Source: Bacillota bacterium
GTDB lineage: Bacteria > Bacillota > Negativicutes > CTSoil-072
Assembly (NCBI GenBank): GCA_017889545.1
Contig: JAGFZV010000008.1
Location: 70,874-134,873 of the forward strand
Reading direction: 5' to 3'
Length of the DNA stretch: 64,000 nucleotides
The position numbers were made by a program, and so were the translations under genes. This document shows, piece by piece, positions 3,041 to 52,852 of this stretch (its first letter is position 1; each line of letters opens with the position of its first letter). The notes under the pieces were generated by a model. That model saw only the letters and a program-made list of their open reading frames with translations, had not been told where the DNA came from and did not search any database.

Positions 3041-3059
3041 GAGGAGGTACAGCTATACC

Positions 3060-3692
3060 ATGGATTCGAAAGAATTTACTGCTAAAACGATCGAAGAAGC
3101 GGTGGCAGCGGCTCTAACTGAGTTGCAAGTTACAGAGGACCAAATTGAATATGAGATTTTAGATGTGCCAAGTAAAGGATTGTTTGGTATTATCGGTAAT
3201 AAGCCTGCACGTATTCAAGTTTCTGTAAAAATTGCCAAAAAAATTGATCCGCTTACCGTAGCCCATGATTTTCTGAGTCAAGTATTCGATGCGATGCATA
3301 TTGATGTAAAGATTGAAATTTTGGATAATGATGAGTGTAAAATGATTCATCTGCATGGGGATAATTTAGGAGTGTTGATTGGGAAACATGGTCAGACGCT
3401 TGACGCACTTCAATATTTAACGAATTTGGCCGCCAATCATGATGCGGAAGAACGGGTTCGCATTGTTATTGACATAGAAGACTACCGGAAACGGCGTGAG
3501 GAGACTTTATCGCGCTTAGCGTTTCGATTGGCGGATAAAGTGAAACGTCATCACGAACGAGTAGTGTTGGAACCTATGAGTGCGCATGAAAGAAAGATTA
3601 TCCATATGGCTCTACAGGACGATGCCCGCATATCTACTTACAGTGAAGGGGAAGAGCCTTACCGAAAAGTGGTTATAGCGTTAAAAAGATAA
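3060..3692 (+). CDS. jag: Jag/KhpB RNA-binding protein (KH and R3H domains)
   Basis: 210 aa; C-terminal ...RHHERVVLEPMSAHERKIIHMALQDDARISTYSEGEEPYRKVVI R3H-like motif; synteny after yidC. Confidence 0.85.
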   Translation: MDSKEFTAKTIEEAVAAALTELQVTEDQIEYEILDVPSKGLFGIIGNKPARIQVSVKIAKKIDPLTVAHDFLSQVFDAMHIDVKIEILDNDECKMIHLHGDNLGVLIGKHGQTLDALQYLTNLAANHDAEERVRIVIDIEDYRKRREETLSRLAFRLADKVKRHHERVVLEPMSAHERKIIHMALQDDARISTYSEGEEPYRKVVIALKR

Positions 3693-3709
3693 TTTTCGGA
3701 TATGCTAGA

Positions 3710-3748
3710 CCCCAGTAGTAATGGCTATTATTACTGGGGTTTCTTTAT
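3710..3748 (+). terminator. Intrinsic terminator after jag
   Basis: ccccagtagtaatggctattattactgggg hairpin followed by TTTCTTTAT. Confidence 0.7.
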
Positions 3749-3788
3749 ATGAACTATTTTTGATTTTAGAGGAAGGCGGCGGAGCCTG

Positions 3789-19451: not shown

Positions 19452-20849
19452 ATGCAGAATATGTTGCGTACAATACCAGCGGTAGATCAAATATTGTCAG
19501 AAGCGCAAGCCGACCCCGGATTATCCGCCTATCCACGGCCAATTCTCGTCGAAGCAATTCGAACAGCGGTTCAGGCGATCCGTATGGAAATGCTGGCAGG
19601 TCACAGCGCAGATATTGCTGTACCCAGCTTACTATATGCCGTAAAAAAAATATTATTGCAACAAACGACCATGAATCTGAAGCGGATAATCAATGCAACT
19701 GGAGTGATCATCCACACCAATTTAGGTCGGGCGCCGTTCAGCTTACGGGCTAAAGCGGCAGTAGACGGGGTTTTAGAAGGGTATAGCACAGTGGAATTTG
19801 ATTTGCAGCATGGTGTTCGCGGCGAACGCAACAGTCTGGTAGAATCAAAGCTTTGTGCGTTAACCGGAGCAGAAGCGGCTCTTGTCGTAAATAATAATGC
19901 CGCTGCGGTAATGTTAGTATTGTCTTCTTTGGCGAAAGAACAAGAAGTGATTATTAGCCGGGGACAGTTAGTAGAAATTGGAGGATCTTTTCGCATTCCG
20001 GAGGTGCTGCGCCAGAGCGGCGCAAGATTAGTGGAAGTTGGCACTACCAATAGAACAAATTTGGCAGATTATGAACAAGCGATATCCGGACAAACAGCAG
20101 CAATCATGAAAGTGCACACGAGCAATTACCGGATCATAGGTTTTGTTTCACAACCAGAGGAAAAACAACTCACTGACTTGGCCAGACAGCATGGAATTGT
20201 GAGCATCAACGACTTGGGAAGCGGAACGCTATTGCCAATGAATGTAAACGGATATCAAGAAAAAACGGTTCAAGAAGCAGTAAAAGAGGGATTTGACATC
20301 GTTACTTTTAGTGGTGATAAACTGCTTGGCGGCGGACAAGCCGGCATTATTGTCGGCAAGGAAAAATACTTGAAAAAAATGAAAGCGAACCATCTTTTGC
20401 GGGCATTGCGCATGGACAAACTTTGTTTAGCCGCCTTAGAGGGAACATTATTGGATTATTTAATCGGTTTTCCCGCAATCGATATCCCCGTACAAGCAAT
20501 GCTGCGCCGTGAGACAGAGGAATTACGGCAACAGGCGATGGATTTTGCAAAGCGGCTTGCGCCGTTAATTGAACTTGGCTGGAAAGTGGACACTATTGAA
20601 CTCGAATCATGGACTGGAGGCGGGGCGTTCCCCGCAGTGGAGCTACGAAGCTATGGACTTCGTCTTTGTGCAATACAGGTTGGGTTAAGCGCAAGCCAGC
20701 TGGAAAAATATTTCCGAAATTGGACGATACCGATTATTGCTCGCGTTCACAATGATGAGGTAGTGATTGATGTACGATGCTTACTTGACAGTGATGAAGA
20801 AGAAATTATTGCTGCCTGTCAGCAAGCGGGAAAGGAAATGAACAAATGA
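19452..20849 (+). CDS. selA: L-seryl-tRNA(Sec) selenium transferase
   Basis: 465 aa; SelA-like N-terminus (...IPAVDQIL...) and PLP-enzyme core; overlaps selB start. Confidence 0.9.
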   Translation: MQNMLRTIPAVDQILSEAQADPGLSAYPRPILVEAIRTAVQAIRMEMLAGHSADIAVPSLLYAVKKILLQQTTMNLKRIINATGVIIHTNLGRAPFSLRAKAAVDGVLEGYSTVEFDLQHGVRGERNSLVESKLCALTGAEAALVVNNNAAAVMLVLSSLAKEQEVIISRGQLVEIGGSFRIPEVLRQSGARLVEVGTTNRTNLADYEQAISGQTAAIMKVHTSNYRIIGFVSQPEEKQLTDLARQHGIVSINDLGSGTLLPMNVNGYQEKTVQEAVKEGFDIVTFSGDKLLGGGQAGIIVGKEKYLKKMKANHLLRALRMDKLCLAALEGTLLDYLIGFPAIDIPVQAMLRRETEELRQQAMDFAKRLAPLIELGWKVDTIELESWTGGGAFPAVELRSYGLRLCAIQVGLSASQLEKYFRNWTIPIIARVHNDEVVIDVRCLLDSDEEEIIAACQQAGKEMNK

Positions 20850-22729
20850 AACATGTCATTATTGGAACGGCAGGACATGTCGATCATGGGAAAACAGCAT
20901 TAATTTATGCACTAACAGGCACAGATACAGATCGCTTAAAGGAAGAAAAACGACGGGGTATTTCTATCGATCTGGGTTTCGCTGCATTCGAATTGGCTGA
21001 AGATATAAAAGCAGGATTTGTGGATGTGCCGGGGCATGAACGGTTCTTAAAAAATATGTTGGCCGGAACAGGCGGCATTGACGCAGCGGTATTGGTTATA
21101 GCAGCTGATGAGAGTGTGATGCCACAGACCAGGGAGCACTTAGCAATGTTGCAATTATACGGAGTTCAGCATGGGATCGTTGTTATCAATAAAATAGACA
21201 AGGTTGACAGCGAGTGGCTGGATTTAGTTGAGGAAGAGATTCGAGCGCTATTGCGGGATACTTTTTTAGCGACAGCGCCGCTGTGCAGAGTCTCTGCGCT
21301 TACTGGCGTTGGGTTGGAACAATTTCACAGAGAACTGGTAAGTATGGCGCGGATCATTCCGGCGAGGGACACGGCAGCGCCGTTTCGGATGTGGATCGAT
21401 CGGGTTTTTGTTTCGAAAGGGCACGGAGTCATTGCAACTGGTTCTGTGTTGAGTGGAACAGCGATGAGTGGAGACACGCTAAAATTATTGCCGTCCGAAA
21501 CGGTGTTTCGCGTCCGTGGACTGGAGGTACATGGCGTGAAGACCGATTCCGTCTGTGCCGGGCAAAGAGCGGCCATCAACCTCTCTGGGCCAGAAATTAA
21601 GACGATCAATAGGGGAATGGTGTTAACTGCAAAAGAGTATGGTCAAGTCAGTGCGAACTGGGATGCGGAAGCAAAGTGGTATCAGGATCTTCCGACCGCC
21701 GGCTTGCGGATACGATTACATATAGGAACCGCTGAGTATATTGGCCGAATTCATCATTATAAAGATGCACCGGAAAATATCATCCGGCTGCTTCTGGAAA
21801 AACCACTGGGCGCGGCAGCCGGAGATCGGGGCATTATCCGCTTGTATTCGCCGCAGATTCTGATAGGGGCCGTTTCATTGATTTCTCCCGGAGGCAGAGC
21901 AAGGAGATTGCCGCAATGTACTCATGAATTGGCTCAAGCGCAATCCGCACGTGACTTGTCGCAAATTGTAAGGTTGCTGCCGGCTCGCGAAGAGCGATTA
22001 TTATTAAAGGGTGAAATAAGATGCATGGCAGGCTATTTTTCGCCAGAGAAAGTAGACGTTGATTTGCAAAAGGCCGTAGAGACAGATTGGCTGCTGACGA
22101 TAGGTGATTATTACTGTGCAACGACAGTGGCAGACCGACTGATACAAACTATGCAAAAATTAATAGGGGAGTATCATCGGCGCCAACCGTATCGAGCGGG
22201 AATTCCCCGGGAAATATTGAGACAAAAATTGCGGTTATCCGAAAGAGAATTTGAAGCATTCATCCATCTGTGGAAAGGCAAAGAGCAGATACAATTGGAT
22301 GGAGCGGAAATAGCTTTGATTGAGCATGCGGAAAAATACAATACTTGGCGGCGAAAAATCGAGGTGCAAATGGAAACGGTATTGTCAGAAACGGATGTAA
22401 CAACGATAACAATAGAGCTGTTGGCAGAAAAATTAATAGTGCCAAAAGAAGACGTTTGCGCAGCATACGAGGCGTTATTGTCGGCGGGGACATTGGTTCG
22501 TGTTGGCGATATTATTGTATACAGAAAAACAATTCAATACATTGCGAAAATTATACACCAACACTTTGCCGAAAAACCAACCTTAACAGTCGCAGAATTC
22601 CGTGACAAACTTAACACTTCTCGCAAAACAGCCATGACATTTCTAGAATACTTTGATATGCATAAATATACAATTAGGGAAGGTGACACTCGCCGTAAAG
22701 GCAGGGAAGTAAAACATTTATCAGAATAA
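20846..22729 (+). CDS. selB: Selenocysteine-specific translation elongation factor
   Basis: 627 aa; N-terminal GTPase [23 protein letters not shown]-Tu-like domains, long C-terminal winged-helix extension. Confidence 0.9.
22202..22215. promoter_or_regulatory. Noc-binding-site-like palindrome inside selB
   Basis: ATTCCCCGGGAAAT, 13/14 match to the Noc-binding consensus ATTTCCCGGGAAAT as I recall it. Confidence 0.3.
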
Positions 22730-22778: not shown

Positions 22779-22958
22779 AAAGTACAGTGACTTTATGTAA
22801 TTAAAAGTCTACTGGAAAAAGACATGTGTATGTGGGAGAGTGCCTAGGGTTCCGTACGTAAGTAGTCTGGACCGAGCGGCACTGGTGCAAAGTCGCACAG
22901 CACCACACCGTGGGTATAAAAAACCCTAGCGGAAGATCCCGGTTACAATACCTGGTCT

Positions 22959-24065
22959 TTGTGCAGAATTGGTGCGATTAAAAGTAAAACGCCCTTTTTC
23001 CCTTCAAAAGCATTGTATTTAATGCTTCCGCAGCAAGAAGGACACGACAATTCAGGCTTTGCAATGGTGATGCAGGATTTATACGGCGAATTTGCCGAGT
23101 ATAAAGATAAACCGCTATTGTCCTTGGCGTGTACGCAAAAAGGCGCTAAACTTGTGGAAGACTATATGGAAAACAATAGTTTTGTTCAAGTCCATGAATG
23201 GATACCGAAAGTAAACAAGCAACCGGGGTTGGACATAAAAGCAATGCCCTATTACATCTTCCGCAATTATGATTATCCGGATTATTTGGCAAAAGCGTCC
23301 AAAGAAGCAAAGGAAGAGTTGCTGTTGTCGACCCGACTGGCTATTCGTGAATTATTGGAAAAAAATGATCAGGGGTATGCGTTTTCCTTTTGGCCGGATG
23401 TGTTGACACTGAAAGAAATCGGCGATCCTCGCGACATAGCTACATATTTTGGATTATGGAACGACAGCGGTGAATTGTTGGCCAAAAACATTGTTGTCCA
23501 ATGCAGACAAAATACAAACTATGAAATAGTTCGCTATGCTGCTCACCCGTTCTTTATCCAAGGTTATACCTTATGTGCAAACGGGGAAAATACTTTTTAT
23601 ACAAAAAACAAAGAGTTCCAAAAATCCTTAAATAAAGGGTATATTGGCTTTGAATCTGATTCGCAAAACTTCCTATATACTTTGCATTATGTGCTGCATG
23701 AGTTAAAGTGGCCAATTAAGTACTATAAGCATGTCATTACGCCTCTTCAATTTGAAGAATTGGAAAATCGGCCGGATCAGGCTGCATTGCAAGCCATCCG
23801 CCAATCGTTGGGGCACTTGGAGATCAATGGCCCAAATACAATTATCGGAATGTTGCCGGATAATAGCATGATGACCTGCTGCGATTCGAAGAAATTGCGG
23901 CCGGTAGTCGTTGGCGGCGATGAAGAAACAATTGCGATTTCATCTGAAGTCTGTGGACTCAACGTTATTCTTCCTGATCGGGATAAGACCAAAGATATAT
24001 ACCCCAACGAGCGAGAAGTAGTGGTCATCAATGAGGAATTGGAGGTGCAACGATGGAAACAATGA
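22959..24065 (+). CDS. Class-II glutamine amidotransferase domain protein (archaeal-type glutamate synthase subunit)
   Basis: 368 aa; N-terminal Cys directly after initiator Met (MCRIG...), as in Ntn amidotransferases; first gene of three-gene GltS-like set. Confidence 0.6.
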   Translation: MCRIGAIKSKTPFFPSKALYLMLPQQEGHDNSGFAMVMQDLYGEFAEYKDKPLLSLACTQKGAKLVEDYMENNSFVQVHEWIPKVNKQPGLDIKAMPYYIFRNYDYPDYLAKASKEAKEELLLSTRLAIRELLEKNDQGYAFSFWPDVLTLKEIGDPRDIATYFGLWNDSGELLAKNIVVQCRQNTNYEIVRYAAHPFFIQGYTLCANGENTFYTKNKEFQKSLNKGYIGFESDSQNFLYTLHYVLHELKWPIKYYKHVITPLQFEELENRPDQAALQAIRQSLGHLEINGPNTIIGMLPDNSMMTCCDSKKLRPVVVGGDEETIAISSEVCGLNVILPDRDKTKDIYPNEREVVVINEELEVQRWKQ

Positions 24066-25687
24066 GAACCCAAGAAGTAACCGTGAACGATTTGCCGTGG
24101 AAAATTGAACACAGCACCATTCGTTGCACAATGTGCGGCAGTTGCGTTGCTGCCTGTACTTTTAATGCGATTGAAGCAAAAATGGAACGTCGTTCTGTTA
24201 CGATATCCACGGGCCATCAACCGGAACCTATGCAGCAGCACAAGGCAATACCGGTCATCCTGCAAAAAAATAGCATAGCGCATGCTTGTGTTGGCTGCGG
24301 GATGTGCGAAAAAATATGTCCGAACAAGGCAATTAAGCCTGTTCGTAACCTTGATAGCCGGTACAATGTATTGGCCCGGTCCGGAGGAACGACCATTAAA
24401 CGGGGCGGCCGGAATAATCTGATCCAGGAGAGGACGCTCGATAAAATTGTAGTGGGCCGGATTTCTCAAATGACGGACCCGTCACTTGATGCCGAGCGGC
24501 ATGTTTTTGACATTTTAGCGCCGTTTGGAAGAGTGTTGCCGGCAAATAAACTGCCTTTTGCGCAAGAAAATGGCGAATTGCGTTTGACAGCACAAACTCC
24601 GCCAGTCAATTGGATTTATCCGTTGATCTTCAGTGATATGTCTATCGGCGCGTTATCGACAAGGGCGTGGGAAGCAATTGCATTAGCAGTTGGTTATTTG
24701 AATGAAAAACATCATCTGCCGGTACGGATGAGTTCCGGTGAAGGCGGTATGCCGGTTAATTTGATGAAATCGGATTTTCTGAAATATACAATGATCCAGA
24801 TTGCATCCGGACATTTTGGCTGGAACCGAATCGTTCGAGCCATGCCGCATATGAACGTCGATCCGGCAGGGATTATCATTAAGATTGGTCAAGGAGCAAA
24901 GCCTGGAGACGGCGGACTATTGCCGGCTGCGAAAGTAGCGGAACATGTTCAAGCGATCCGGGGCGTACCGAAGGCTGACTTAATGTCGCCGCCTAACCAC
25001 CAGGGCCTCTATTCCATAGAAGAATCTGTACAGAAGATGTTCATGTCCATGAACGCCGCCTTCAAGTTTCGTGTGCCTGTGGCTATTAAATGCGCTGCAT
25101 CAGCTACTTCGGTATCCGTGTATAATAACTTGCTGCGCGACCCCTACTTGATTTGCGGTGGATTCTTTATTGATGGTATTCAAGGGGGGACAGGAGCGGC
25201 AAATGAAGTCTCTCTTGACCACACTGGCCATCCGATCGTTTCTAAAACTCGTGAATGCTATTTAGCGGCTGTTAAACAAGGGCTTCAGGGTCAAATTCCG
25301 TTATGGGCCGGCGGGGGCGTTGGCTTGACGGGCAATGCCGCTGCGGATGCATTTAAAATGATCTGTCTGGGCGCAAATGGCGTATTTCTTGGCAAACTTC
25401 TTATCCAGTTGTGTGGCTGCGTTGGTAATGAACATGGACGCTGCAATGCTTGTAGTACAGGGCATTGTCCTACGGGGATCTGCACGCAAGACCCACGCTT
25501 GGTAAAACGCCTGGATATTGATAAGGCAGCTCAAAATATTGTCGATTACACCCTGGCGTTCGATATGGAAATGCGAAAATTAATGGCGCCGGTTGGCAAT
25601 AGCACATTGCCGGTTGGCCGGTCTGATGCACTGGTTACGACTGATCGGGCGATTGCAGAAAAATTGGGCATCCAATATGCCTGTTAG
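24053..25687 (+). CDS. Glutamate synthase FMN-binding central-domain protein with N-terminal 2x[4Fe-4S] ferredoxin
   Basis: 544 aa; Cys motifs CTMCGSCVAAC and CVGCGMCEKICP, then GltS-type FMN domain and C-terminal Cys cluster. Confidence 0.7.
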   Translation: METMRTQEVTVNDLPWKIEHSTIRCTMCGSCVAACTFNAIEAKMERRSVTISTGHQPEPMQQHKAIPVILQKNSIAHACVGCGMCEKICPNKAIKPVRNLDSRYNVLARSGGTTIKRGGRNNLIQERTLDKIVVGRISQMTDPSLDAERHVFDILAPFGRVLPANKLPFAQENGELRLTAQTPPVNWIYPLIFSDMSIGALSTRAWEAIALAVGYLNEKHHLPVRMSSGEGGMPVNLMKSDFLKYTMIQIASGHFGWNRIVRAMPHMNVDPAGIIIKIGQGAKPGDGGLLPAAKVAEHVQAIRGVPKADLMSPPNHQGLYSIEESVQKMFMSMNAAFKFRVPVAIKCAASATSVSVYNNLLRDPYLICGGFFIDGIQGGTGAANEVSLDHTGHPIVSKTRECYLAAVKQGLQGQIPLWAGGGVGLTGNAAADAFKMICLGANGVFLGKLLIQLCGCVGNEHGRCNACSTGHCPTGICTQDPRLVKRLDIDKAAQNIVDYTLAFDMEMRKLMAPVGNSTLPVGRSDALVTTDRAIAEKLGIQYAC

Positions 25688-25699
25688 GAGGGAAGCGAA

Positions 25700-28015
25700 A
25701 TGAAAAAGATTATTACTTTTAATGATCACAACCGAATGTCAACGCAGGATTTGCTGCAAGAGATTAATGAAGCGTTAGCTGGCGGCGAAACCGAATTTCA
25801 GATAGAAGCTTCCGGACAGCATGATATTGGCGGCCCACTATGGCACCCGGAAGGAAAACCGTTAAAATTTGTGGTAACGAACCCAGGCCAACGGGTTGGC
25901 TCAATGTGTTTGCCAGGAACAGAAATTATCGTTGATGGTCCGGCACCGGCCGATGTGGGCTGGTTGAATGCAGGCGGAAAAATTGTTGTCCTCGGTGATG
26001 GCGGCGATACGACAGCGCATTGTGCCGCATCAGGAACGATTTACGTCGGTGGACGGGCCGGAACTCGCTCCGGATCGATGATGAAGCATGATCCGTTATA
26101 CGAAAAGCCGGAATTTTGGGTGCTTAAAAACTGCGGCAGTTTCTCGTTTGAATTTATGTCCGGCGGGATTGCTGTAGTTTGCGGGGTTGACAGTGAGCAA
26201 TTCGAGTCCATCCTCGGATCACGGTCTTGCGTAGGTATGGTCGGCGGAACGTTATATTTCCGGGGACCCGTGAGCGGCATCTCTTTAAAAGACGTAAAAG
26301 TAGGGCCGTTGGAAGAACGTGATATTGCTTATTTAGACGGAAAAATGGATGATTTCCTGGGATCAATTCAACGTCCCGAATTGAGGAAAGAATTATCCAA
26401 TTGGAGTGATTGGAAGAAAGTAGCGCCGTTAACATACGATGAGCGTCCTAAAAAGGCGAATACGGATACATGGTCCTTCCGGACGAATGAGTGGGTTAAA
26501 AACGGAATTTTTGGCGATGTTTGCAATGATGATTTTGCTGTGTATGGCTTAGTATCAACAGGGACATATCGGCAGAGGGTTCCTCTCTGGGAAAATGCCC
26601 GTTATGCGGCGCCGTGTGAGTTTAATTGTCCGGCATCGATCCCTTCACAGCAGCGCTTTAATTTTCTCCGGGAAGGAAAAATTGACGAAGCATACCGGAT
26701 GGTATTGGAATACACTCCCTTCCCTGGATCGGTTTGCGGTGCAGTTTGCCCGAATTTGTGCATGGATGAATGTTCGAGGGGCAAGATTGACATTTCTGCC
26801 CAAATTGGCAAGTTAGGCCTGTATTCAATTGATTCAGCCTTGCCGGGACCGGAGTCAAAAACGGGGAAAAAGGTAGCGGTCATCGGTGGCGGTCCGGCCG
26901 GGCTGACAGCAGCTTGGCAGCTGGCTCGCCTTGGTCACGAAGTGTCTGTCTATGAAGCGGACGCAAAAATGGGTGGTAAATTGGAGCAGGTTATCCCTCG
27001 CGGACGATTGCCTCACACCACTCTTGAAAAAGAATTGCAGCGGATTGCCGATATGGGAGTGCAATTTTTCCCGAACACAAAAGTGGATGCCCCTAAATTC
27101 GCTGAATTGCGAAACAGCTACGATGCAGTCGTGGTAACAACCGGCGCTCATGTTCCGCGGATCATTCCGGTTCCGGGTAAAGAGAGAATAGTGCCCGGGC
27201 TGGAGTTTTTAAAAGCGATCAATCGCGGCGAAAAACCTGCTATTGGGCGGAGAGTCATTGTTATCGGCTGCGGAAACTCCGGTATGGACGTTGCAGTTGG
27301 AGCATACCAACTGGGTGCAGAACAGGTAACTTGTATAGATGTTCAGCAACCGGCAGCGTTTGAAAAAGAAATTGCTCACGTCGAAGAACTCGGCGGGGTA
27401 TTGCAATGGCCGGTGTTTACCAAAGAAATTACGCCGGAGGGGATTATTACCCAGAACGGGGATTTGATCAAAGGCGACATGGTCATCATCGCGATTGGCG
27501 AGAGTCCGGAGCTGGACTATTTGCCGGCTGACCTGAAACTATTCAGAGGCTGTCTGGTGACGGGCAGCGACTATCAGATTGGTGAAGGATTGTTTACTGC
27601 CGGTGATACAATAAAACCGGGACGGATGGTTGACGCGATCGGTGCAGGGCGCCAAGCCGCCTTGTCCGCAGATGCTTATTTGCGCGGTGAAGAGTTTACC
27701 GGCGAAAGCAAAACAAAAATTCCGGCTGAACGATTGTCAACGGCATATTTTAAAAAATGTCATACCTGTGATGTGCCTGAAGCTAAGGAAGATTATTTGC
27801 GCTGTATCAGCTGCGGAACTTGCCGTGATTGCCATATGTGCATGAAATCTTGCCCGGAAAATGCGATTGAGCGAAAGACGTTGGATGATGGTGGATATGA
27901 ATACGTTTCCGATCCGCAAAAATGTATCGGGTGTGGGATTTGTGCAGGAGTTTGTCCTTGCGGAATTTGGACATTGCGGGAAAATGCCGAACCGATTGCA
28001 ATGTATAAGACCTGA
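25700..28015 (+). CDS. Fusion protein: GXGXG domain (GltS C-terminal) + GltD-like NAD(P)H oxidoreductase + C-terminal 2x[4Fe-4S] ferredoxin
   Basis: 771 aa; N-terminal repetitive GXGXG segment, Rossmann motifs VAVIGGGPAGLTAA and VIVIGCGNSGMDVA, C-terminal CISCGTCRDC...CIGCGICAGVCPCG. Confidence 0.7.
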   Translation: MKKIITFNDHNRMSTQDLLQEINEALAGGETEFQIEASGQHDIGGPLWHPEGKPLKFVVTNPGQRVGSMCLPGTEIIVDGPAPADVGWLNAGGKIVVLGDGGDTTAHCAASGTIYVGGRAGTRSGSMMKHDPLYEKPEFWVLKNCGSFSFEFMSGGIAVVCGVDSEQFESILGSRSCVGMVGGTLYFRGPVSGISLKDVKVGPLEERDIAYLDGKMDDFLGSIQRPELRKELSNWSDWKKVAPLTYDERPKKANTDTWSFRTNEWVKNGIFGDVCNDDFAVYGLVSTGTYRQRVPLWENARYAAPCEFNCPASIPSQQRFNFLREGKIDEAYRMVLEYTPFPGSVCGAVCPNLCMDECSRGKIDISAQIGKLGLYSIDSALPGPESKTGKKVAVIGGGPAGLTAAWQLARLGHEVSVYEADAKMGGKLEQVIPRGRLPHTTLEKELQRIADMGVQFFPNTKVDAPKFAELRNSYDAVVVTTGAHVPRIIPVPGKERIVPGLEFLKAINRGEKPAIGRRVIVIGCGNSGMDVAVGAYQLGAEQVTCIDVQQPAAFEKEIAHVEELGGVLQWPVFTKEITPEGIITQNGDLIKGDMVIIAIGESPELDYLPADLKLFRGCLVTGSDYQIGEGLFTAGDTIKPGRMVDAIGAGRQAALSADAYLRGEEFTGESKTKIPAERLSTAYFKKCHTCDVPEAKEDYLRCISCGTCRDCHMCMKSCPENAIERKTLDDGGYEYVSDPQKCIGCGICAGVCPCGIWTLRENAEPIAMYKT

Positions 28016-28080: not shown

Positions 28081-28384
28081 CCAATAAAGAATGAAAGAAA
28101 AAACATTTGTCCTTTGTAGCTAGACGTTTTCATATCTATTTCCAAATGTGTTTTTGAACAGGACAGATGACGATAAAAATACCAAATACTATTGACATGG
28201 CAGATTAGATCCACATATAATAATAGCCAGAAAGAAATTCGTGCCATATGGAAAAAATTCCAAAAAAGGTGTCGTTTGGGAAGGGGGATTGTGATTATTC
28301 CTTTTTACAAATTGTAATTGTGCAAAAAAGATAATTTAAGAAATAGTGATAAAGCAAAATGAACAAAATAAGGGAGGACCAGTT

Positions 28385-29557
28385 ATGTCAAAAAAATGGC
28401 TGTCTTTAATCAGTATGGTATTGGCTATCGGTATGGTTGCTGTTTTGGCTGTTGGATGCGGTGGACCTGCTAAAACAGATTCTACAGAGATAAAGATCGG
28501 CGGCGATTTTGAAATTACCGGTGGTGTTGCAAATTTTGGAAAATCGACTGTAAACGGAATTCAATTAGCATTTAAAGAAGTCAATGCAAAGGGCGGCATA
28601 CTTGGCAAAAAAATTGTTCTTGTTTTAGCGGACAACAAATCAGAACCGTCTGAAGCCGCAAATGCGATTACCAAATTAATCACCCAAGACAAAGTAGTTA
28701 CAGTGCTTGGTCCGGTAGCAAGTTCGAATGTTTTGGCAGCTTCGCAGATTGCCATTGACAATAAAATTCCTCTTTTAACGGCGACAGCTACGGCATCAAA
28801 AGTTACTGTAGGCGATGACGGAAAAGTTAAAGATTATATTTTCCGGGCTTGCTTCATTGATCCGTTCCAAGGCGAAGTTATGGCGAATTTTGCTGCGAAA
28901 TCCTTAAAAGTCAAAACGGCGGCAATTTATGTTGACAATGCTTCCGATTATTCGAAAGGGTTAGCACAAGTTTTTGAAGAAAAATTCATCAAGAATGGCG
29001 GACAAATCGTTGCCAGGGAAGCATTCCTGGCCAAGGATACCGATTTTAAATCAGCATTAACAAAGATGAAAGCTTCTAATCCGGACGTTATTTTCATTCC
29101 GGCATATTATCAAGAAGTGGGCTTGATTGTAAAACAAGCGCGCGAACTTGGGATGAACACTCCGATGATTGGTACGGATGGCTGGGATTCACCCAAAGTC
29201 GTTGAGATTGCCGGGGCGGCAGCGTTGAATAATACGTTTTTTAGCAATCATTATTCACCTGAAGACAAAGATCCGCATGTTACTTCTTTTGTGGAAGCGT
29301 ATAAGAAAGAATATGGCCAAGTTCCTGATGCTTTGGCAGCGCTGGGCTATGATGCGGCGCTTATGCTGATTGATGCGATCAAACGCGCTAATAGCGCAGA
29401 ACCAGCCAAAATCAAAGATGCGCTGGCACAAACAAAAAACTTGCAGGTCAGCACAGGGATTTTAACTTTGGATGCCAGCCACAACCCGGTTAAGAGTGCA
29501 GTTGTTATTGAACTTAAAGACGGAAAACAAACATTCAAAGAAAAAATCAACCCTTAA
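28385..29557 (+). CDS. Branched-chain amino acid ABC transporter substrate-binding lipoprotein (LivK/LivJ family)
   Basis: Lipoprotein signal MSKKWLSLISMVLAIGMVAVLAVGCGG; periplasmic binding protein type I fold; SD AAGGGAGG; track start 28346 is upstream extension. Confidence 0.85.
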   Translation: MSKKWLSLISMVLAIGMVAVLAVGCGGPAKTDSTEIKIGGDFEITGGVANFGKSTVNGIQLAFKEVNAKGGILGKKIVLVLADNKSEPSEAANAITKLITQDKVVTVLGPVASSNVLAASQIAIDNKIPLLTATATASKVTVGDDGKVKDYIFRACFIDPFQGEVMANFAAKSLKVKTAAIYVDNASDYSKGLAQVFEEKFIKNGGQIVAREAFLAKDTDFKSALTKMKASNPDVIFIPAYYQEVGLIVKQARELGMNTPMIGTDGWDSPKVVEIAGAAALNNTFFSNHYSPEDKDPHVTSFVEAYKKEYGQVPDALAALGYDAALMLIDAIKRANSAEPAKIKDALAQTKNLQVSTGILTLDASHNPVKSAVVIELKDGKQTFKEKINP

Positions 29558-29651
29558 TCTACGACAACGAGGTCCGGGGATAAGGCATAAGTCTTATCCC
29601 TTTTTCCCTGTTTATATACATATGAGAAGGATTATGAAGGAGGTGGGGCGC

Positions 29652-30548
29652 ATGGACTCTTCATCATTTTTAATGCAATTTGCTCAACAACTGATTAACG
29701 GAGTGTCACTAGGCAGCATATATGCGCTCATTGCGTTAGGGTATACGATGGTATACGGGACCATCAAGCTGATCAACTTTGCGCATGGTGATGTGTATAT
29801 GGTGGGAGCTTATATCGGTTTTTTTGCTACAACGGTGTTGGGACTGGGTTTTCTTCCGGCTCTGTTGCTGGCCATGGTGGGAGCAGGAATCCTGGGGATG
29901 TTTATTGAAAGGGCAGCTTACCGGCCGCTGCGGAATGCTCCGAAAATTGCGGTGCTGATTACCGCGATTGGTGTTTCGCTGTTTTTGGAGTATGGAAGTA
30001 TGTTACTGGTTACACCGCAGCCGCGAACGTTTCCGGCAGTGCTGTCTTCTACCCCAATCCATATTGGCGGATTGATCATCAATAGCCAGCAAGTATTAAT
30101 TTTAGGAGTATCGCTGTTCCTGATGGTTGTGCTTACTTACGTTGTCAATTATACCAAGCTGGGCAAAGCCATGCGGGCAGTATCCTTTGACACGGATACG
30201 GCCCGGTTAATGGGGATTGATGTCGACAAAGTGATATCCTATACCTTTGCGGTCGGATCGGCTCTGGCTGCCGCGGCAGGCGTCTTGGTCGGCGTGTATT
30301 ATAATTCGATTGACCCGTTAATGGGCATTATGCCGGGCTTGAAGGCTTTTGTCGCGGCGGTTCTAGGAGGTATTGGCGTTATCCCGGGAGCCATGCTTGG
30401 CGGAGTTCTTATGGGCGTCATTGAGGCATTGGTCAGCGGATTCATTTCTTCGACTTTTCGCGATGCCGCAGCCTTTGGGATATTGATTATTATTTTGCTG
30501 TTCAAGCCGGCCGGGTTGCTGGGAAAAAATATACGAGAGAAAGTGTAG
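29652..30548 (+). CDS. livH: Branched-chain amino acid ABC transporter permease
   Basis: Multi-TM permease; ATG 29652 with SD GGAGGTGG (track start 29472 is upstream extension). Confidence 0.85.
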   Translation: MDSSSFLMQFAQQLINGVSLGSIYALIALGYTMVYGTIKLINFAHGDVYMVGAYIGFFATTVLGLGFLPALLLAMVGAGILGMFIERAAYRPLRNAPKIAVLITAIGVSLFLEYGSMLLVTPQPRTFPAVLSSTPIHIGGLIINSQQVLILGVSLFLMVVLTYVVNYTKLGKAMRAVSFDTDTARLMGIDVDKVISYTFAVGSALAAAAGVLVGVYYNSIDPLMGIMPGLKAFVAAVLGGIGVIPGAMLGGVLMGVIEALVSGFISSTFRDAAAFGILIIILLFKPAGLLGKNIREKV

Positions 30549-30557
30549 GTGACAGAT

Positions 30558-31511
30558 ATGCGTGTAAAAGCAAAGAGAGACTTGCTGTCACTGGGCGCAT
30601 GCCTGCTCTTGTATGCGATTATTCAGCTGCTGATTGAGGTAGATGTGATTGGCCAATTTTGGGTGCTGAATATTGTTTTGATCGGGATCAATATCATCTT
30701 GGGAGTTAGCCTGAACCTAATCAATGGGTTTACAGGCCAATTTTCCATCGGACATGCCGGCTTTATGGCGGTAGGCGCTTACGTTGGCGCTGTCATGACG
30801 GTTAAGCTGCACTTGCCGTTTATCGTGGCGATTTTGGCCGGGGCCGCCGGTGCTGGTATCCTTGGCTTTGCGATTGGCTTGCCTACGCTGCGCTTGAGCG
30901 GTGACTACTTGGCGATTGCAACGTTGGGACTCGGAGAAATTATCCGCATCACCATTCTCAATATTCCTTATGTGGGTGGTGCTTCCGGATTAATGGGAAT
31001 ACCCCGCTTAACCAATTTCACATGGGTATTTTTTGCTACCGTATTTACTGTGTTTTTCATTAAGAATTTTATTAATTCATCGCACGGCAGGGCATGCATA
31101 TCAGTACGTGAAAATGAGATTGCTGCAGAAGCGATGGGCGTGGATACGACAAAATATAAGGTTATGGCGTTTACAATCGGCGCAGCGTTTGCTGGTGTAG
31201 CAGGCGCTTTATTCGCTCATTATTTTTACATCGTTCACCCTGCATCTTTCACGTTTATGAAGTCGTTTGACTTGCTGACGATTGTTGTTCTTGGCGGATT
31301 GGGCAGCATTACCGGTTCAATTACCGCTGCGATATTGTTAACCTTTGTTTCCGCGGCACTGGCCGGCTATCCGGAAATGCGGATGGTTATTTATTCTTTA
31401 ATGTTGATTGGACTGATGTTGTTCCGGCCGCAAGGTTTGTTTGGCAACAAAGAAATCAGCCTGAAATTCTTTAATCGCCTGAAGGGAGGCTCGCCACGTG
31501 ACGCTGCTTAA
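30558..31511 (+). CDS. livM: Branched-chain amino acid ABC transporter permease
   Basis: Multi-TM permease following livH. Confidence 0.85.
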   Translation: MRVKAKRDLLSLGACLLLYAIIQLLIEVDVIGQFWVLNIVLIGINIILGVSLNLINGFTGQFSIGHAGFMAVGAYVGAVMTVKLHLPFIVAILAGAAGAGILGFAIGLPTLRLSGDYLAIATLGLGEIIRITILNIPYVGGASGLMGIPRLTNFTWVFFATVFTVFFIKNFINSSHGRACISVRENEIAAEAMGVDTTKYKVMAFTIGAAFAGVAGALFAHYFYIVHPASFTFMKSFDLLTIVVLGGLGSITGSITAAILLTFVSAALAGYPEMRMVIYSLMLIGLMLFRPQGLFGNKEISLKFFNRLKGGSPRDAA

Positions 31512-32265
31512 AACATCAAAACTGGGGATCATGTTTGGCGGATTACGAGCCGTCTCCAATTTAAACCTGGAGATTTCTTCCGGAGAATTGGTTGGCTTGA
31601 TTGGGCCGAATGGCGCAGGGAAGACAACCGCATTTAATTTATTGACGGGCGTGTATCAGCCGACGGAAGGAACAATTGAATTTGACGGCGACAGTATTGT
31701 CGGACTGAAACCATATCAGGTTACGCAGCGGGGGATTGCCCGTACGTTTCAGAATATCCGGTTGTTTTCCGATTTGAGCGTGCTTGATAATGTTAAGATT
31801 GCCTATCATTTTCATGTGAAATACGGCCTTTTGGAAACGGTCGTGCGAATGGGCCGGTATTATCCGGAAGAAGAAGAGTTGGAACATAAGGCGATTCAAT
31901 TCTTAAAAATTTTTAATTTAGACGGCAAGAAAGACGAGATTGCTAAAAATTTGCCGTATGGAGAACAGCGCCGGCTGGAAATCGCACGTGCGTTAGCGGC
32001 ACAGCCCAAACTCCTGCTTCTTGATGAGCCGGCAGCTGGAATGAATCCACAGGAAACTCATCAACTGATGGAGATGATCCGCTGGATACGGAAAGAATTT
32101 GACTTGACAATTCTCTTGATTGAACACGATATGAGCTTGGTTATGGGAGTTTGCGAACGGATTTATGTGCTTGACTACGGAATGGTTATCGCCACCGGTA
32201 CTCCTCAGGAAATTAAAAACAATCCGAAAGTTATTGAAGCGTATCTTGGGGAGGAGGTGCAGTAA
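31498..32265 (+). CDS. livG: Branched-chain amino acid ABC transporter ATP-binding protein
   Basis: Walker A GPNGAGKTT, ABC signature, Walker B LLLDEP. Confidence 0.9.
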   Translation: MTLLKTSKLGIMFGGLRAVSNLNLEISSGELVGLIGPNGAGKTTAFNLLTGVYQPTEGTIEFDGDSIVGLKPYQVTQRGIARTFQNIRLFSDLSVLDNVKIAYHFHVKYGLLETVVRMGRYYPEEEELEHKAIQFLKIFNLDGKKDEIAKNLPYGEQRRLEIARALAAQPKLLLLDEPAAGMNPQETHQLMEMIRWIRKEFDLTILLIEHDMSLVMGVCERIYVLDYGMVIATGTPQEIKNNPKVIEAYLGEEVQ

Positions 32266-32969
32266 TGTTATTAGTGGAAAATATTAATGTGTATTATGGA
32301 GCAATCCACGCACTGAAAGGCGTCAGCGTAGAGGTGAAAGAAGGAGAAATCGTAACGCTGATCGGTGCCAACGGAGCAGGAAAAAGCACCACATTGCGCA
32401 CAATCTCCGGAATGTTAAAGCCTAAAACCGGGAAAATTTTATTTGAAGGACAGGATATAGCCGGGATGGCAGCGCAGAATATTGTCAAACTTGGCCTTTC
32501 GCAGGTTCCGGAAGGACGACGGATTTTCGCAAATATGTCTGTGCTGGAAAATCTTGAGTTAGGCGCTTATATTCGCAATGACTCAAAAGAGATAAAAGAA
32601 GATTTAGAGAAAATTTTCAAGCGGTTTCCGCGGTTGGCAGAAAGAAAAACCCAAATGGCCGGAACGTTAAGCGGCGGGGAGCAGCAGATGCTGGCCATGG
32701 GGCGCGCGATGATGAGCCGTCCCCGGATATTATTGCTGGATGAACCTTCTATGGGGTTGGCTCCTTTGTTGGTAAAGGAGATATTTTCGATTATTCAAGA
32801 TATTAATGCAACGGGAACAACGATTTTATTAGTTGAGCAAAACGCACACATGGCGCTATCGATTGCGCATAAGGCATATGTGCTTGAAACCGGCCGCATT
32901 TCGTTGTCCGGAACCGCGAAAGAGTTAGCTGCAAGCGAGGAAGTGCGGAAAGCATATCTGGGAGCCTAA
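32265..32969 (+). CDS. livF: Branched-chain amino acid ABC transporter ATP-binding protein
   Basis: Walker A GANGAGKST, signature LSGGEQQ, Walker B LLLDEP. Confidence 0.9.
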   Translation: MLLVENINVYYGAIHALKGVSVEVKEGEIVTLIGANGAGKSTTLRTISGMLKPKTGKILFEGQDIAGMAAQNIVKLGLSQVPEGRRIFANMSVLENLELGAYIRNDSKEIKEDLEKIFKRFPRLAERKTQMAGTLSGGEQQMLAMGRAMMSRPRILLLDEPSMGLAPLLVKEIFSIIQDINATGTTILLVEQNAHMALSIAHKAYVLETGRISLSGTAKELAASEEVRKAYLGA

Positions 32970-34821: not shown

Positions 34822-34995
34822 CCAGTTATTACAGAAATCGAATGTTATAGGGCATCCCTTTTCAGTGGAGACGAGGTTTAAAATCTGCTGAGGAAGGGAA
34901 AAGAGGATTTTGAATTCCGTAAGTATAATATACAGATGCATAGATATATTGAATAGCAGTATTAAAAATTGCTTGCAAGAAAGGGGGATTGAAGC

Positions 34996-36024
34996 ATGGT
35001 GAAATTGACGCAGTACACCAAAAGCGGCGGTTGAGCGGCTAAAATCGGGCCAGGGGCCCTGGCACACGTGTTGTGCCAATTGACACCACAGAATGATCCC
35101 CGCTTACTGGTCGGGCTCGGCACCTCAGACGATGCAGGGGTTTACAAATTGAATGATACGACGGCGTTAATTCAAACAGTTGATTTTTTTACGCCGATTG
35201 TGGATGATCCATACCTATTTGGGCAAATTGCCGCTGCGAATAGTTTAAGCGATGTATACGCGATGGGCGGAGTGCCATTAACGGCCATGAACATCGTCGG
35301 ATTTCCAATCGGAGTTCTTGACAAGGAAGTCCTCCTGGCGATTCTTCAAGGAGGGCAGAGCAAGGTAAATGAGGCGGGAGCGCTGATTGTTGGCGGGCAT
35401 ACGATTGATGATCCAGAGCCCAAATATGGATTAAGCGTTACCGGAACGGTTCATCCGGATAAAGTGTTAACGAATGCCGGTGCAAAACCGGGAGACCGTT
35501 TGATTTTGACAAAACCGCTTGGTACAGGTATTTTGGCAACGGCAGCCCGGGCGGAGATGTTTCCGGGCGGCGTCTGTGCTGCTATGGCAAGCATGGCGAT
35601 GTTAAACCGCCTGGCGGCTGAAACGGCAACCGCGTTTTCTGTCCATGCCTGCACGGACATCACCGGGTTTGGTCTGTTGGGGCATCTATATGAAATGACA
35701 TCTGCCAGCCAAGTCCAGGCAGAAATTGATTCTCAGGCGTTGCCATTATTGCCGGAGGCCTTGGCAGCGGCCGCATACGGTCTGGTTCCAGTCGGTGCTT
35801 ATACCAATCGAGCCTATTTGAAACAGGTGACCTTTGCAGCTAATGTGCCGGAAGCACTACGCGATGTTGCTTTTGATCCACAGACTTCCGGCGGACTTTT
35901 GTACAGCTTGGCGGAACAAGAAGCGGAAAAATTATTGGCTTCTCTATGGGCGGCAGGATTAAAGCAATCCGCAATCATTGGGAAAATTTCGGAGGAAGGA
36001 ACAGGGGGAATTTATGTTTACTAA
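34996..36024 (+). CDS. selD: Selenide, water dikinase (selenophosphate synthetase), selenoprotein with in-frame UGA (Sec) at 35032-35034
   Basis: ATG 34996 (SD AAGGGGGA) gives MVKLTQYTKSGG-U-AAKIGPGALAHVL..., matching the E. coli SelD N-terminus LTQYSHGAGCGCKISP with Sec replacing the Cys; ORF track only reports 35068..36024. Confidence 0.85.
35047..35077 (+). promoter_or_regulatory. SECIS-like stem-loop(s) downstream of the selD UGA
   Basis: Inverted repeats gccagg..cctggc (35050-35064) and ggcaca..tgtgcc (35061-35077) begin 15-30 nt after the UGA. Confidence 0.45.
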
Positions 36025-36616
36025 TGTAGATGCCCGAGGATTATCGTGTCCACAGCCGGTTATCGCAACGAAGAAGGCGCTGGATTCGATTAATGAAGGC
36101 GTTATTGTTACTATTGTTGATAATGAAATCTCAAAAGAAAACGTGATAAAGTTTGCCACTGCAAACCAATGTGATGCAAGTTGTGAAGAGAAAAACGGCG
36201 CGTTTTATATTCGGATTACCAAAGCCAAAACGGCTGGATTGACAGTGAGTCTGCCGACGGAGGCCGTGATCAATGCACCTGCGGGAAAAGTAGTGTATTT
36301 CATCAATCAGGATGTTTTGGGCCAAGGAAGCATGGATTTAGGTGCCGTCTTGATGAAATCCTTTTTTTATACTCTGACTGAAATGGATGAGTTACCGCGC
36401 AGCATACTTTTTGTGAATTCCAGTGTTCATTTAACTGTTACGGGTTCGCCGGTACTGGAATTAATTCAAAATTTAGCAACGCGCGGGGTAACGATTTTAT
36501 CCTGCGGAACATGTTTGGATTATTACAAGATCAAGGATAAGCTTGCCGTCGGCAGCGTTTCTAATATGTACACGATCGTTGCCGAAATGAATGCGGGACC
36601 TGTAGTTACGCTGTAA
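36014..36616 (+). CDS. yedF: YedF-like selenium metabolism protein (TusA-like + DsrE-like domains)
   Basis: TusA-type motif RGLSCPQPV at N-terminus; DsrE-like C-terminus; overlaps selD stop; SD AGGGGGAA before ATG 36014. Confidence 0.7.
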   Translation: MFTNVDARGLSCPQPVIATKKALDSINEGVIVTIVDNEISKENVIKFATANQCDASCEEKNGAFYIRITKAKTAGLTVSLPTEAVINAPAGKVVYFINQDVLGQGSMDLGAVLMKSFFYTLTEMDELPRSILFVNSSVHLTVTGSPVLELIQNLATRGVTILSCGTCLDYYKIKDKLAVGSVSNMYTIVAEMNAGPVVTL

Positions 36617-37755: not shown

Positions 37756-37906
37756 TTGACGATTTTATGCGAATACGGTATAATATAACACATAAGCACA
37801 TACACAACAGGTATGGAACTGGCGGATCAGTGGAAATAACCACATGAACCATATCTGAAAAAGCCGACCGCCTGGGCATAATTTTATGACCCAGGCGGTC
37901 TTTTTA
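37756..37906 (+). ncRNA. Candidate small RNA or attenuator: sigma-A promoter + 115-nt transcript + intrinsic terminator upstream of pflB
   Basis: TTGACG (37756-37761), 17-nt spacer, TATAAT (37779-37784); terminator gaccgcctgggcataattttatgacccaggcggtc + TTTTT (37866-37905); no ORF with SD in between. Confidence 0.4.
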
Positions 37907-37992: not shown

Positions 37993-40221
37993 ATGAGAGA
38001 ATGGAAAAATTTTAGAGGCGGAGTTTGGGAGACAACAATTCAGGTGAGTGATTTTATTCAGCAGAATTATACCCCGTACACAGGTGACGATCAATTTTTA
38101 ACCGGCATCAGCCCCAAAACGCAAACTCTCTGGGAACGCTGCACAGAATTACTGAGCAATGAACGTAAAAAAGGCGGCGTTTTGGCAGTTGATTTCAAGA
38201 CGGTATCGTCTATTACGGCTCATCAGCCGGGCTATATTGATAAAGAACTGGAAGAAATTGTAGGATTGCAGACGGATCAACCATTAAAGCGCAGTGTTAT
38301 TGTAAACGGCGGCATCCGGATGGCGGAGCAGGCTTGCCAGGCATATGGTTATGAACTTGATCCAACAATTAGCGCTATCTATCATAACCATCGAACGACG
38401 CATAATACAGCCGTATTTCATGCTTATACGGAAGAGATGAAGCAAGCCCGACGTTTGGGCATTATTACAGGTCTCCCGGACGCCTATGGGCGTGGCCGTA
38501 TTATTGGAGACTATCGCCGGGTTGCACTATATGGAACAGACCGGCTGATTGTCGGAAAGCAAAATGATTTAAAAGCCTTGGCGAATAAACCGATGAGTGA
38601 AGAAGTCGTCAAGCTGCGCGAAGAAGTAGCGGCTCAAATTTCGGCGTTGGAGGATATGACCAAAATGGCGGCATCCTATGGATGTGCGATTGATCAGCCT
38701 GCTGCCGATGCACAGCAAGCGGTACAATGGGTCTACTTCGGTTATTTGGCAGCGATAAAAGAGCAAAACGGTGCGGCGATGTCCTTGGGCAGGGTCTCGA
38801 CCTTCCTGGATATTTATTTGGAACGTGATTTAGCTGCCGGAAAAATTTCCGAAGAACAAGCACAGGCATTAATCGACCAACTGATCATTAAGTTGCGGCT
38901 GGCACGGCATTTAAGGACTCCTGAATACAACGAATTATATGCCGGCGACCCTTTGTGGGTCACGGAAGCAATTGGCGGGATGGGCTTGGACGGGCGTACC
39001 TTAGTGACTCGCACCTCATACCGTATCCTGCAAACCTTGTACAATTTAGGCCCTGCTCCGGAGCCGAACCTGACGGTGCTATGGTCTGTGAATTTGCCGG
39101 AACAATTCAAGCAATACTGTGCGCAAGTTTCCATCAAGACCAGTGCAATTCAATATGAAAATGACGATATTATGCGTCCGGTCTATGGAGATGATTACGC
39201 AATTGCCTGTTGCGTATCGGCCATGAAAGTCGGCAAACAGATGCAGTTTTTTGGCGCCCGGGCCAATCTTGCAAAAGCGTTGTTATTGGCAATCAACGGC
39301 GGGATCGATGAAAAAAGCGGCGAACAGCTTGGTCCCAAGATGCCGCTTCCACCAGATGGAGCACTGAACTATGAACAAGTACGCGCCAATTATTCTACGG
39401 TTATAGACTGGCTGGCGGGTTTGTATGTGAATACATTGAATTTAATTCATTTCATGCATGACAAATATGCGTACGAAAGAGCCCAAATGGCGCTCCACGA
39501 TACCGAAGTCGAACGGTTAATGGCGTTTGGGGCGGCCGGATTGTCTGTAGCCGCCGATTCTCTCAGCGCGATACGTCATGCAAAAGTGAAACCCGTTCGC
39601 GACGAGCGAGGAATTGCCGTCGATTTTGCCGTAGAAGGCCAATTTCCCTGTTACGGTAACAATGATGAGCGGGTAGACGCGCTGGCCGCTGAGCTAAGCG
39701 CCGAGTTTTCCGACAAACTAAAGCAACATGCAACTTACCGCCAGGCTCGTCACACGCTGTCAATATTGACAATCACCTCGAATGTGATGTATGGCAAAAA
39801 GACCGGCGCAACCCCAGACGGTCGGGCAGCCGGTGAAGCATTTGCCCCAGGCGCCAATCCCATGCATGGGCGCGATAAGAATGGCGCATTGGCAGCGATT
39901 GCCTCCATTACCAATTTATCTTATGATGATTGCCGTGATGGGATTTCCTACACTTTTTCCATTGTGCCCGGTGCATTGGGGAAATCAAATATTGCCCGCG
40001 TTGGCAATTTGACAGCGATGCTGGATGGGTATGCAATACAGGCGGGTCACCATATCAATGTGAATGTTCTTGATCGGGCTGTGCTGAAAGATGCCATGGC
40101 TCATCCGGAAAAATACCCGCAATTGACTATTCGTGTTTCCGGCTATGCAGTTCATTTTACAAAACTGACGCCAACACAACAGGCGGAAGTGCTCAACCGG
40201 ACCTTTTATCAGGCGGTGTAA
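37993..40221 (+). CDS. pflB: Formate C-acetyltransferase (pyruvate formate-lyase, glycyl radical enzyme)
   Basis: 742 aa; C-terminal glycyl-radical motif RVSGYAVHF; adjacent activating enzyme. Confidence 0.9.
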
Positions 40222-40953
40222 ATGATGCGCGGATATTATCATTCCAGAGAAACGTTCGGAACCGTTGACGGAAAAGGGATTCGGTATGTGTTATTTTTGG
40301 CAGGATGTTCTTTAAGCTGTGTTTTTTGTCATAATCCAGATACCTGGCAACGTGGCGGTAAAACCATTACGGTGGAAGAGGTCATGGCTGATGTACTGAA
40401 ATACCAGCATTATTACAAAGCTTCCGGCGGCGGCATCACAGTAAGCGGCGGCGAACCGCTGCTGCAGCCGGAGTTTGTTGCCGCTCTTTTTCAGGAATGC
40501 CGGAAACAAGGGATCCACACCACGCTTGATACGGCCGGGTTTTGCCCGCAAGACAATCTTGAGCAGGTATTGCCGTACACGGATGAGGTATTGTTTTGTC
40601 TAAAAGTGATGGATGAAAAAAAGCATCGCCTGCTGACTGGCGCTGATAACCGTTGCATTCAGTCGAACCTGCGATTGGCAGCGGCGCAGGTTCCGACTGT
40701 CATACGCTATGTCGTGATTCCTGAGATCAATGACGAATCAGCGGATATTCAACAATTGGCCGCTTTTATCGTATCGCTTCCGCAGACGGTATCCGTCGAA
40801 TTACTCGGATATCACATTATGGGAAAGAGAAAATGGGAGGATCTCGGAATTCCGTATCGGCTTTCGTCTGTTCCTCCCGCAAATCAAAAGCATTTGGAAG
40901 CGGTATATCATTGGCTTGCAAAGAAAGAAATCGACGTTCAACCAATGCAATAG
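40222..40953 (+). CDS. pflA: Pyruvate formate-lyase activating enzyme (radical SAM)
   Basis: 243 aa; radical-SAM cluster motif CSLSCVFCHNPD; follows pflB. Confidence 0.9.
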   Translation: MMRGYYHSRETFGTVDGKGIRYVLFLAGCSLSCVFCHNPDTWQRGGKTITVEEVMADVLKYQHYYKASGGGITVSGGEPLLQPEFVAALFQECRKQGIHTTLDTAGFCPQDNLEQVLPYTDEVLFCLKVMDEKKHRLLTGADNRCIQSNLRLAAAQVPTVIRYVVIPEINDESADIQQLAAFIVSLPQTVSVELLGYHIMGKRKWEDLGIPYRLSSVPPANQKHLEAVYHWLAKKEIDVQPMQ

Positions 40954-52523: not shown

Positions 52524-52852
52524 AGGGGAATCCCTTCAAGCCCTTCCGTCTCAGTCACTTCGGATCCAAGCGGATAAAAAATTTCCAGATTACCATATGA
52601 TCAGATATGGCGTACCGTACATTGTGCAGCTCGCATGGATGCCGCCAAAATACACCAATATCAGCCTAAAAGTAACATGGGTAAAGTATTTTGTCAATAC
52701 AATCGCGAAAGATCAGAAAAAAATTTGCATTTTCTTTTCTGATGGTGCTATAATAATTAAGTCTAGGACAACATTATAGGTTTCAAATTTCGGTTTGTGA
52801 ACCTTCCCTGCCCCGCTTGAGGGGCCATTAGTCCAGAGGAGGAGGTGATTTC

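Follow-up and report, generated by a model that had tools for sequence, protein, structure and literature searches.

Selenocysteine (Sec) occupies the catalytic position of selenide, water dikinase (SelD) in approximately 19% of prokaryotic SelD genes in published surveys, and Sec-containing SelD is textbook knowledge (PMC4561486, PMC1794560, PMC13188914). Zhang et al. (2006, PMC1794560) rank FdhA and SelD first among bacterial selenoproteins in breadth of occurrence, with Sec-SelD listed for Clostridia, Moorella and Deltaproteobacteria (PMC1794560), and the Sec is described as the catalytic residue in a flexible loop near the N terminus of SelD (2026 review, PMC13188914). The association of yedF with selD is also published; YedF combines a SirA/TusA-like N-terminal domain bearing a CPxP motif with a DsrE-like C-terminal domain bearing a CGxC motif (PMC5322559).

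The selD gene described here lies in a stretch of 64 kb (the window, denoting the whole of the DNA that was analysed) from a metagenome-assembled genome (MAG) of an uncultured Negativicutes-like member of the Bacillota. It is, with high confidence, a Sec-decoded selD whose true start is the ATG at position 34996.

The selD frame and its N-terminal extension

The frame opened by this ATG reads MVKLTQYTKSGG-UGA-AAKIGPGALAHVL and closes with the stop codon TAA at 36022-36024 (Table 1). In the mechanical list of open reading frames (ORFs), selD begins 72 bases further downstream, at the GTG, and encodes 318 residues. A database protein from a Firmicutes/Bacillota MAG (NCBI 'Selenide, water dikinase', here P0001) has the same 318 residues and is 100% identical to the called ORF. 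The initial annotation had moved the start of selD from 35068 to the upstream ATG with its Shine-Dalgarno sequence (SD), and had identified codon 13 as UGA; both features are present in the sequence, and all of its coordinates were recovered.

Table 1 Features of the selD locus and of the associated selenium genes in the window
Feature	Position	Strand	Properties
selA (L-seryl-tRNA(Sec) selenium transferase)	19452-20849	+	TIGR00474, 552 bits, full length
selB (Sec-specific elongation factor binding SECIS)	20846-22729	+	TIGR00475, 363 bits, residues 4-617 on profile positions 1-578 of 581
SD AAGGGGGA	34981-34988	+	7 nt upstream of ATG 34996; read directly
Full-length selD (selenide, water dikinase)	34996-36024	+	342 codons plus stop; UGA at codon 13
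In-frame UGA read as Sec (U13, predicted)	35032-35034	+	aligned with Cys of homologues
Hairpin 1	35047-35059	+	GGGCC-AGG-GGCCC, -7.9 kcal/mol, 5 bp, UGA-loop 17 nt
Hairpin 1, alternative register	35049-35063	+	GCCAGG-GGC-CCUGGC, -8.8 kcal/mol, mutually exclusive with 35047-35059
Hairpin 2	35060-35078	+	UGGCACA-CGUGU-UGUGCCA, -9.2 kcal/mol, 7 bp, UGA-loop 32 nt, G-U in loop
GTG (Val25), miscalled start	35068-35070	+	within apical loop of hairpin 2
yedF (selenium-metabolism sulfurtransferase-like)	36014-36616	+	TIGR03527, 222 bits, cut-off 110

For profile and structure comparisons of the 342-residue protein, the UGA was replaced by Cys. The match to TIGR00476, the equivalog profile of SelD, has 406.8 bits (cut-off 125), with residues 3-309 covering profile positions 1-310 of 311, and that to NF002098 has 354.9 bits versus 299; the alignment of the extended N terminus with SelD families, which had been suggested as a check, thus gives a profile match from position 1. 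Comparison with E. coli SelD (PDB entry 3U0O) gives E=1e-75 over residues 2-329, and comparison with Aquifex aeolicus SelD (2YYE/2ZOD) gives E=6e-66. U13 and K16 align with C17 and K20 of 3U0O and with the G-C-AAK motif of 2YYE; residue 13 of the window protein is also residue 13 of the A. aeolicus enzyme, counted from the aligned Met, and both lie in the motif S/G-G-x-AAK-I/V-GPG. The resemblance to the E. coli N terminus, with Sec in place of Cys, had been recognized beforehand, and in the alignment the UGA indeed falls on Cys17. Cys17 and Lys20 are essential in E. coli SelD, and the A. aeolicus enzyme carries Sec13 naturally and was crystallised as a Cys variant. U13 is likewise opposite Cys in SelD of Pelosinus, Sporomusa and other Negativicutes. 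This Sec/Cys-Lys loop is present only with the upstream extension and is missing from the 318-residue call. The PurM-like AIRS and AIRS_C domains (PF00586, PF02769) are precomputed for P0001 and all homologues.

Approximately half of the 120 best database homologues, including those of Pelosinus, Sporomusa and Methylomusa, are full-length proteins of 341-363 residues. At the position of the UGA they read GG-C-A[AG]K, with P0040 (GG-L-AAK) as the single exception, and the Cys-type orthologues, of 342-347 residues, carry the N-terminal segment KLT.Y....GG-C-AAKIGPG, so the refuting condition named in the initial annotation, orthologues that begin at the internal GTG and lack this segment, does not hold. 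The remaining half are called at 304-329 residues with varying first residues, as results when gene callers restart after a stop codon. The short 'orthologues' of 311-329 residues are truncated calls, whose DNA shows the same in-frame TGA after the same conserved peptide; the conserved upstream TGA was found in 8/8 truncated SelD entries checked on DNA.

A scan of the 174-nt selD leader for promoters and terminators returned nothing convincing. A motif in this leader, TATTGAATAG[C/G]AGTA.TA at 34947-34966 (+), approximately 35-50 nt 5' of the selD start, is kept in the window and in loci L162/L163 and L165 and is absent from more distant relatives. It could be a promoter or an operator; a simple sigma-70 scan made no call on it.

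Conservation of the TGA codon and of the preceding peptide

DNA of selD was gathered from 80 genomic loci, 80 metagenomic loci and eight closer relatives obtained by exact protein look-up; the close relatives could be reached only in this way, the metagenome scan having yielded one moderately close relative (L081, 72%). In the 80 best genomic matches the codon at the UGA position is TGA in 63 and a Cys codon (TGT/TGC) in 17, and over all 153 loci with a locatable motif the counts are 126 TGA and 27 TGY. Within the clade of the window, all nine relatives (67-89% protein identity, different samples) carry TGA, or 10/10 with the window itself. Together with the profile match of the extension and the alignment of the UGA to a conserved Cys, this recurrence goes well beyond coincidence.

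The run of 12 codons leading up to the UGA shows 32 synonymous and 3 non-synonymous codon changes over eight relatives (70-89% identity). Upstream of the ATG, 21/21 alignment columns are variable in these relatives, and a G-rich SD is the sole conserved feature among the relatives compared. The synonymous excess and the conservation of the TGA together indicate that the extension is translated and that neither an error nor the decay of a pseudogene produced the TGA.

These data bear on the deposited annotation, under which translation would start at GTG 35068, SelD would have 318 residues and the upstream frame would be a non-coding leader. That reading agrees with the mechanical ORF and with the NCBI product of the identical P0001, but it yields a protein devoid of the loop aligned to E. 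coli Cys17/Lys20, and its 'leader' shows strong purifying selection at the peptide level. Moreover, the GTG has no SD before it and sits in a hairpin loop, and truncated homologues have been called at various lengths (311, 314, 317, 318, 320, 321, 323, 326 and 329 residues), as expected of the first start codon after a stop. We consider a genuine GTG start extremely unlikely; the deposited product is a gene-calling artefact without the catalytic loop.

A single base change converts TGC or TGT into TGA, and the codon might accordingly be put down to a sequencing or assembly error, or to a mutation that has left an inactive pseudogene. Against this, assemblies made independently of one another from different samples share the TGA, at protein identities of 67-100%, and it is present in 126 of the 153 selD loci counted above; the recurrence excludes the sequencing error that the initial annotation had named as its possible undoing. 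The remainder of the gene is intact and keeps all invariant SelD residues, and downstream of the codon there is an RNA structure specific to Sec-type genes. The chance that an error or lesion accounts for the TGA is close to nil, and this explanation is effectively already refuted by the comparative data.

TGA closes 11/40 long frames in the window and is therefore a normal stop there; the code is the standard one and the UGA of selD is a case of site-specific recoding. A reassigned genetic code was rejected on the same count. When the window was screened for pairs of segments in one frame with a lone TGA between them, no further convincing selenoprotein candidate emerged, the other hits being adjacent genes or out-of-frame overlaps, as judged by coordinates only.

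The reading of the gene as Sec-decoded corrects the 318-residue SelD of this MAG, together with dozens of public homologues called at 311-329 residues, all of them deprived of the catalytic loop by gene callers that take the Sec codon for a stop. Since every one of the eight entries checked has the TGA, the mis-annotation appears to be systematic. The gene also marks the organism as Sec-decoding, and other UGA-containing genes in the genome therefore merit the same check.

Hairpins downstream of the UGA

The initial annotation had pointed to GC-rich inverted repeats at 35050-35077 as a possible SECIS, and these resolve into two Sec-type-specific hairpins (Table 1). Both have the properties required of a bacterial SECIS (bSECIS), namely a loop of 3-9 nt, a stem of 4-16 bp, a G in the first two loop positions, a spacing of 16-37 nt and a minimum free energy (MFE) of -7.5 kcal/mol or lower (PMC13188914). 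Folded jointly, they reach -19.5 kcal/mol (z -2.3), a stability attained by 4/200 shuffles. Rfam searches at the gathering threshold and in permissive mode gave no match on the element, and hence no curated model is usable. Single-sequence folding of segments of 39-121 nt did not separate the window from shuffles (z +0.1 to -2.0); because this was unconvincing, the structures were assessed comparatively over a panel of Sec-type and Cys-type selD genes.

In the region of hairpin 1, the median energy is -7.8 kcal/mol in Sec-type versus -3.8 kcal/mol in Cys-type genes (p=6e-7). Relative to synonymous-codon resampling, the Sec-type region folds more strongly (mean z -1.8, Wilcoxon p ~1e-20), whereas the Cys-type region shows no excess (z -0.33, p=0.2). 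The region of hairpin 2 has medians of -9.3 kcal/mol (Sec-type) versus -3.35 kcal/mol (Cys-type; p=7e-6), with resampling z-scores of -1.42 versus -0.01. No excess stability is seen in the control segment, at +50 to +75. The window taken alone gives a marginal signal: resamplings that fold as strongly make up 3-5% for hairpin 1 (z of approximately -2.0 to -2.2) and 13% for hairpin 2 (z -1.4).

Pairing is retained in 82% (hairpin 1) and 95.7% (hairpin 2) of the clade alignment, versus 55% or less for slid partners. Hairpin 2 shows double-sided compensatory changes at two pairs in the clade (A-U/G-U/G-C and G-C/A-U). In hairpin 1, the synonymous sites of the stem are fixed in the clade (Gly GGG 9/10, Ala GCC 10/10) while those of the loop vary freely, and over the panel its middle pair covaries (UA 46, GC 17, AU 4, CG 1). 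Fixed-register covariation over 115 Sec-type sequences gives 68% versus 65% of cells paired for the two registers of hairpin 1; both exceed the controls, and the counts do not separate them. Hairpin 2 reaches -7.5 kcal/mol or lower at 71/121 Sec-type versus 7/26 Cys-type loci, and those 71 Sec-type loci have a constant spacing of 32-33 nt, with a G in the first two loop positions in 70/71.

This pattern raises the tentative and rather doubtful possibility that the recoding signal of Sec-type selD is a pair of adjoining hairpins conserved in tandem, in place of the one stem-loop known from the bSECIS consensus; the distal hairpin would be the SECIS bound by SelB and the proximal one a separate selD-specific element. 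The distal assignment may draw on the position 32-33 nt from the UGA, the G-U loop and the compensatory changes. If the tandem were real, the proximal hairpin, at approximately 17 nt, might pause the ribosome, hinder RF2 or tune a self-dependent synthesis of SelD. As it stands, the Sec-specific tandem-hairpin pattern, found over approximately 120 selD genes, offers a modest clue to how SECIS elements are built.

Selenium genes of the window and comparison with known systems

The start of selB overlaps the stop of selA, and both genes lie 12-15 kb 5' of selD, their profile matches confirming the earlier placement of the pair approximately 13 kb upstream. The first 11 nt of yedF, from its ATG onward, are also the final 11 nt of selD, an overlap that had been noticed before and is read directly in the sequence; it is a case of translational coupling. 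The YedF translation has a Pfam TusA domain at residues 5-70 and contains the CPxP (SCPQP) and CGxC (SCGTC) motifs. The selD-yedF pairing is retained in relatives, which share the gene order CBS/ACT protein, CDF transporter, selD, yedF, mscS, DUF951. In two of the loci, yedF and mscS are separated by a DUF3343/Se_S_carrier gene that the window does not have (L166, 4151-4330; L168, 4039-4320), and one (L164, 3960-3987) has no yedF between selD and mscS.

No tRNA gene, and hence no selC, was found in the 64-kb window by ARAGORN or Rfam, in agreement with the initial annotation. With ARAGORN, tRNA-Sec was detected in the fetched selD flanks of 9/60 other loci, mostly of Clostridium and Bacillales, and in 0/7 of the nearest relatives scanned; because 51/60 other selD loci also have no selC nearby, its absence here is unremarkable, and we infer that it is located elsewhere in the genome.

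As the window contains no tRNA gene of any kind by which the decoding tRNA could be identified, an amino acid other than Sec has to be considered at the UGA, either Cys brought by a tRNA-Sec-like tRNA-Cys on SelB or Trp or Cys through near-cognate read-through. In some bacteria, Cys is reported to be inserted by such a tRNA-Cys delivered by SelB. A full-length selA, however, shares the window with selB, and the only role known for selA is the conversion of Ser-tRNA(Sec) to Sec-tRNA(Sec). Sec is, in addition, the published norm at this position of SelD (PMC4561486). Recoding to a residue other than Sec is accordingly judged very improbable.

Support for the Sec-decoded reading of selD comes from the frame itself, from the homology of its N-terminal extension, from the Sec/Cys alignment and from the conservation of the TGA, and further from purifying selection before the UGA, from the RNA structures specific to Sec-type genes and from selA and selB in the window. 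Insertion of Sec at this UGA is itself predicted from sequence. In the proposed mechanism, translation of selD would start at the upstream ATG, and at the UGA SelB with Sec-tRNA(Sec) would be held by the downstream mRNA hairpins (35047-35078, a putative bSECIS), so that Sec would be inserted instead of termination taking place. The predicted SelD has 342 residues, with Sec13 and Lys16 in the glycine-rich loop near its N terminus as the putative equivalents of E. coli Cys17 and Lys20, and yedF would be co-translated from its overlapping start. SelD is predicted to make selenophosphate for SelA, and its synthesis would thus depend on its own product.

Several other features of the window were recorded. 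A full-length, sub-threshold match to the Guanidine-I/ykkC riboswitch model at 22833-22934 (+; 44.6 bits, gathering 63, E=7e-6) lies between selB and a downstream gene cluster. This cluster comprises an ORF without assignment, a GltB-domain Fe-S protein (24053-25687), a GltD-like oxidoreductase (25700-28015) and a Liv-type ABC transporter (28346-32969); the 368-residue ORF at 22959-24065 (+), directly 3' of the element, has no NCBIfam or Pfam match. We take this gene context to be that of ykkC subtype-2 (ppGpp/PRPP) riboswitches. Downstream of selD, a ZMP/ZTP riboswitch (37805-37884 (+), 61.4 bits) is located 5' of pflB (37993-40221) and pflA (40222-40953), in the classic 'pfl motif' arrangement. 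An Rfam pan motif at 52542-52648 (-) exceeds its gathering score with 44.6 bits. Towards the 5' end of the window, from 2393-5171 onward (+), yidC, jag, mnmE, mnmG, rsmG and parB form the usual origin-proximal set, and the window probably adjoins oriC.

In comparison with E. coli SelD, the segment IRLTQYSHGAG-C-GCKISP aligns with VKLTQYTKSGG-U-AAKIGP of the window. The E. coli enzyme has Cys and neither a UGA nor a SECIS, and the Cys-type genes of the panel similarly have no excess hairpins. Both window hairpins share with the E. coli fdhF bSECIS and the bSECISearch consensus an in-ORF site just 3' of the UGA, a small apical loop bearing G followed by G/U, the spacing and the MFE, but have no primary-sequence similarity to the fdhF element. 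In spacing it is hairpin 1 that resembles the E. coli element; in its G-U loop it is hairpin 2, which also has the covariation. The bSECIS consensus is a single hairpin, whereas the window selD has two adjacent Sec-specific hairpins; this layout may be the only mildly new point.

The selD-yedF pair corresponds to the published one (PMC5322559), with a YedF above its profile cut-off that has both motifs and lies directly 3' of selD. As in the Sec-SelD genes of other bacteria, an in-ORF stem-loop follows the UGA and selA and selB are present in the genome. The protein resembles known Sec-SelD, such as that of A. aeolicus, in its family (TIGR00476), in the position of Sec and in the motif S/G-G-U-AAK-I/V-GPG. 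Given that SelD is among the two commonest bacterial selenoproteins and that such genes are routinely mis-annotated, this selD is an ordinary new example of Sec-SelD that adds nothing new on SelD biology; it does not differ in kind from those already known, and is set apart only by its source in an uncultured Negativicutes-like Bacillota MAG and by its truncated deposited product.
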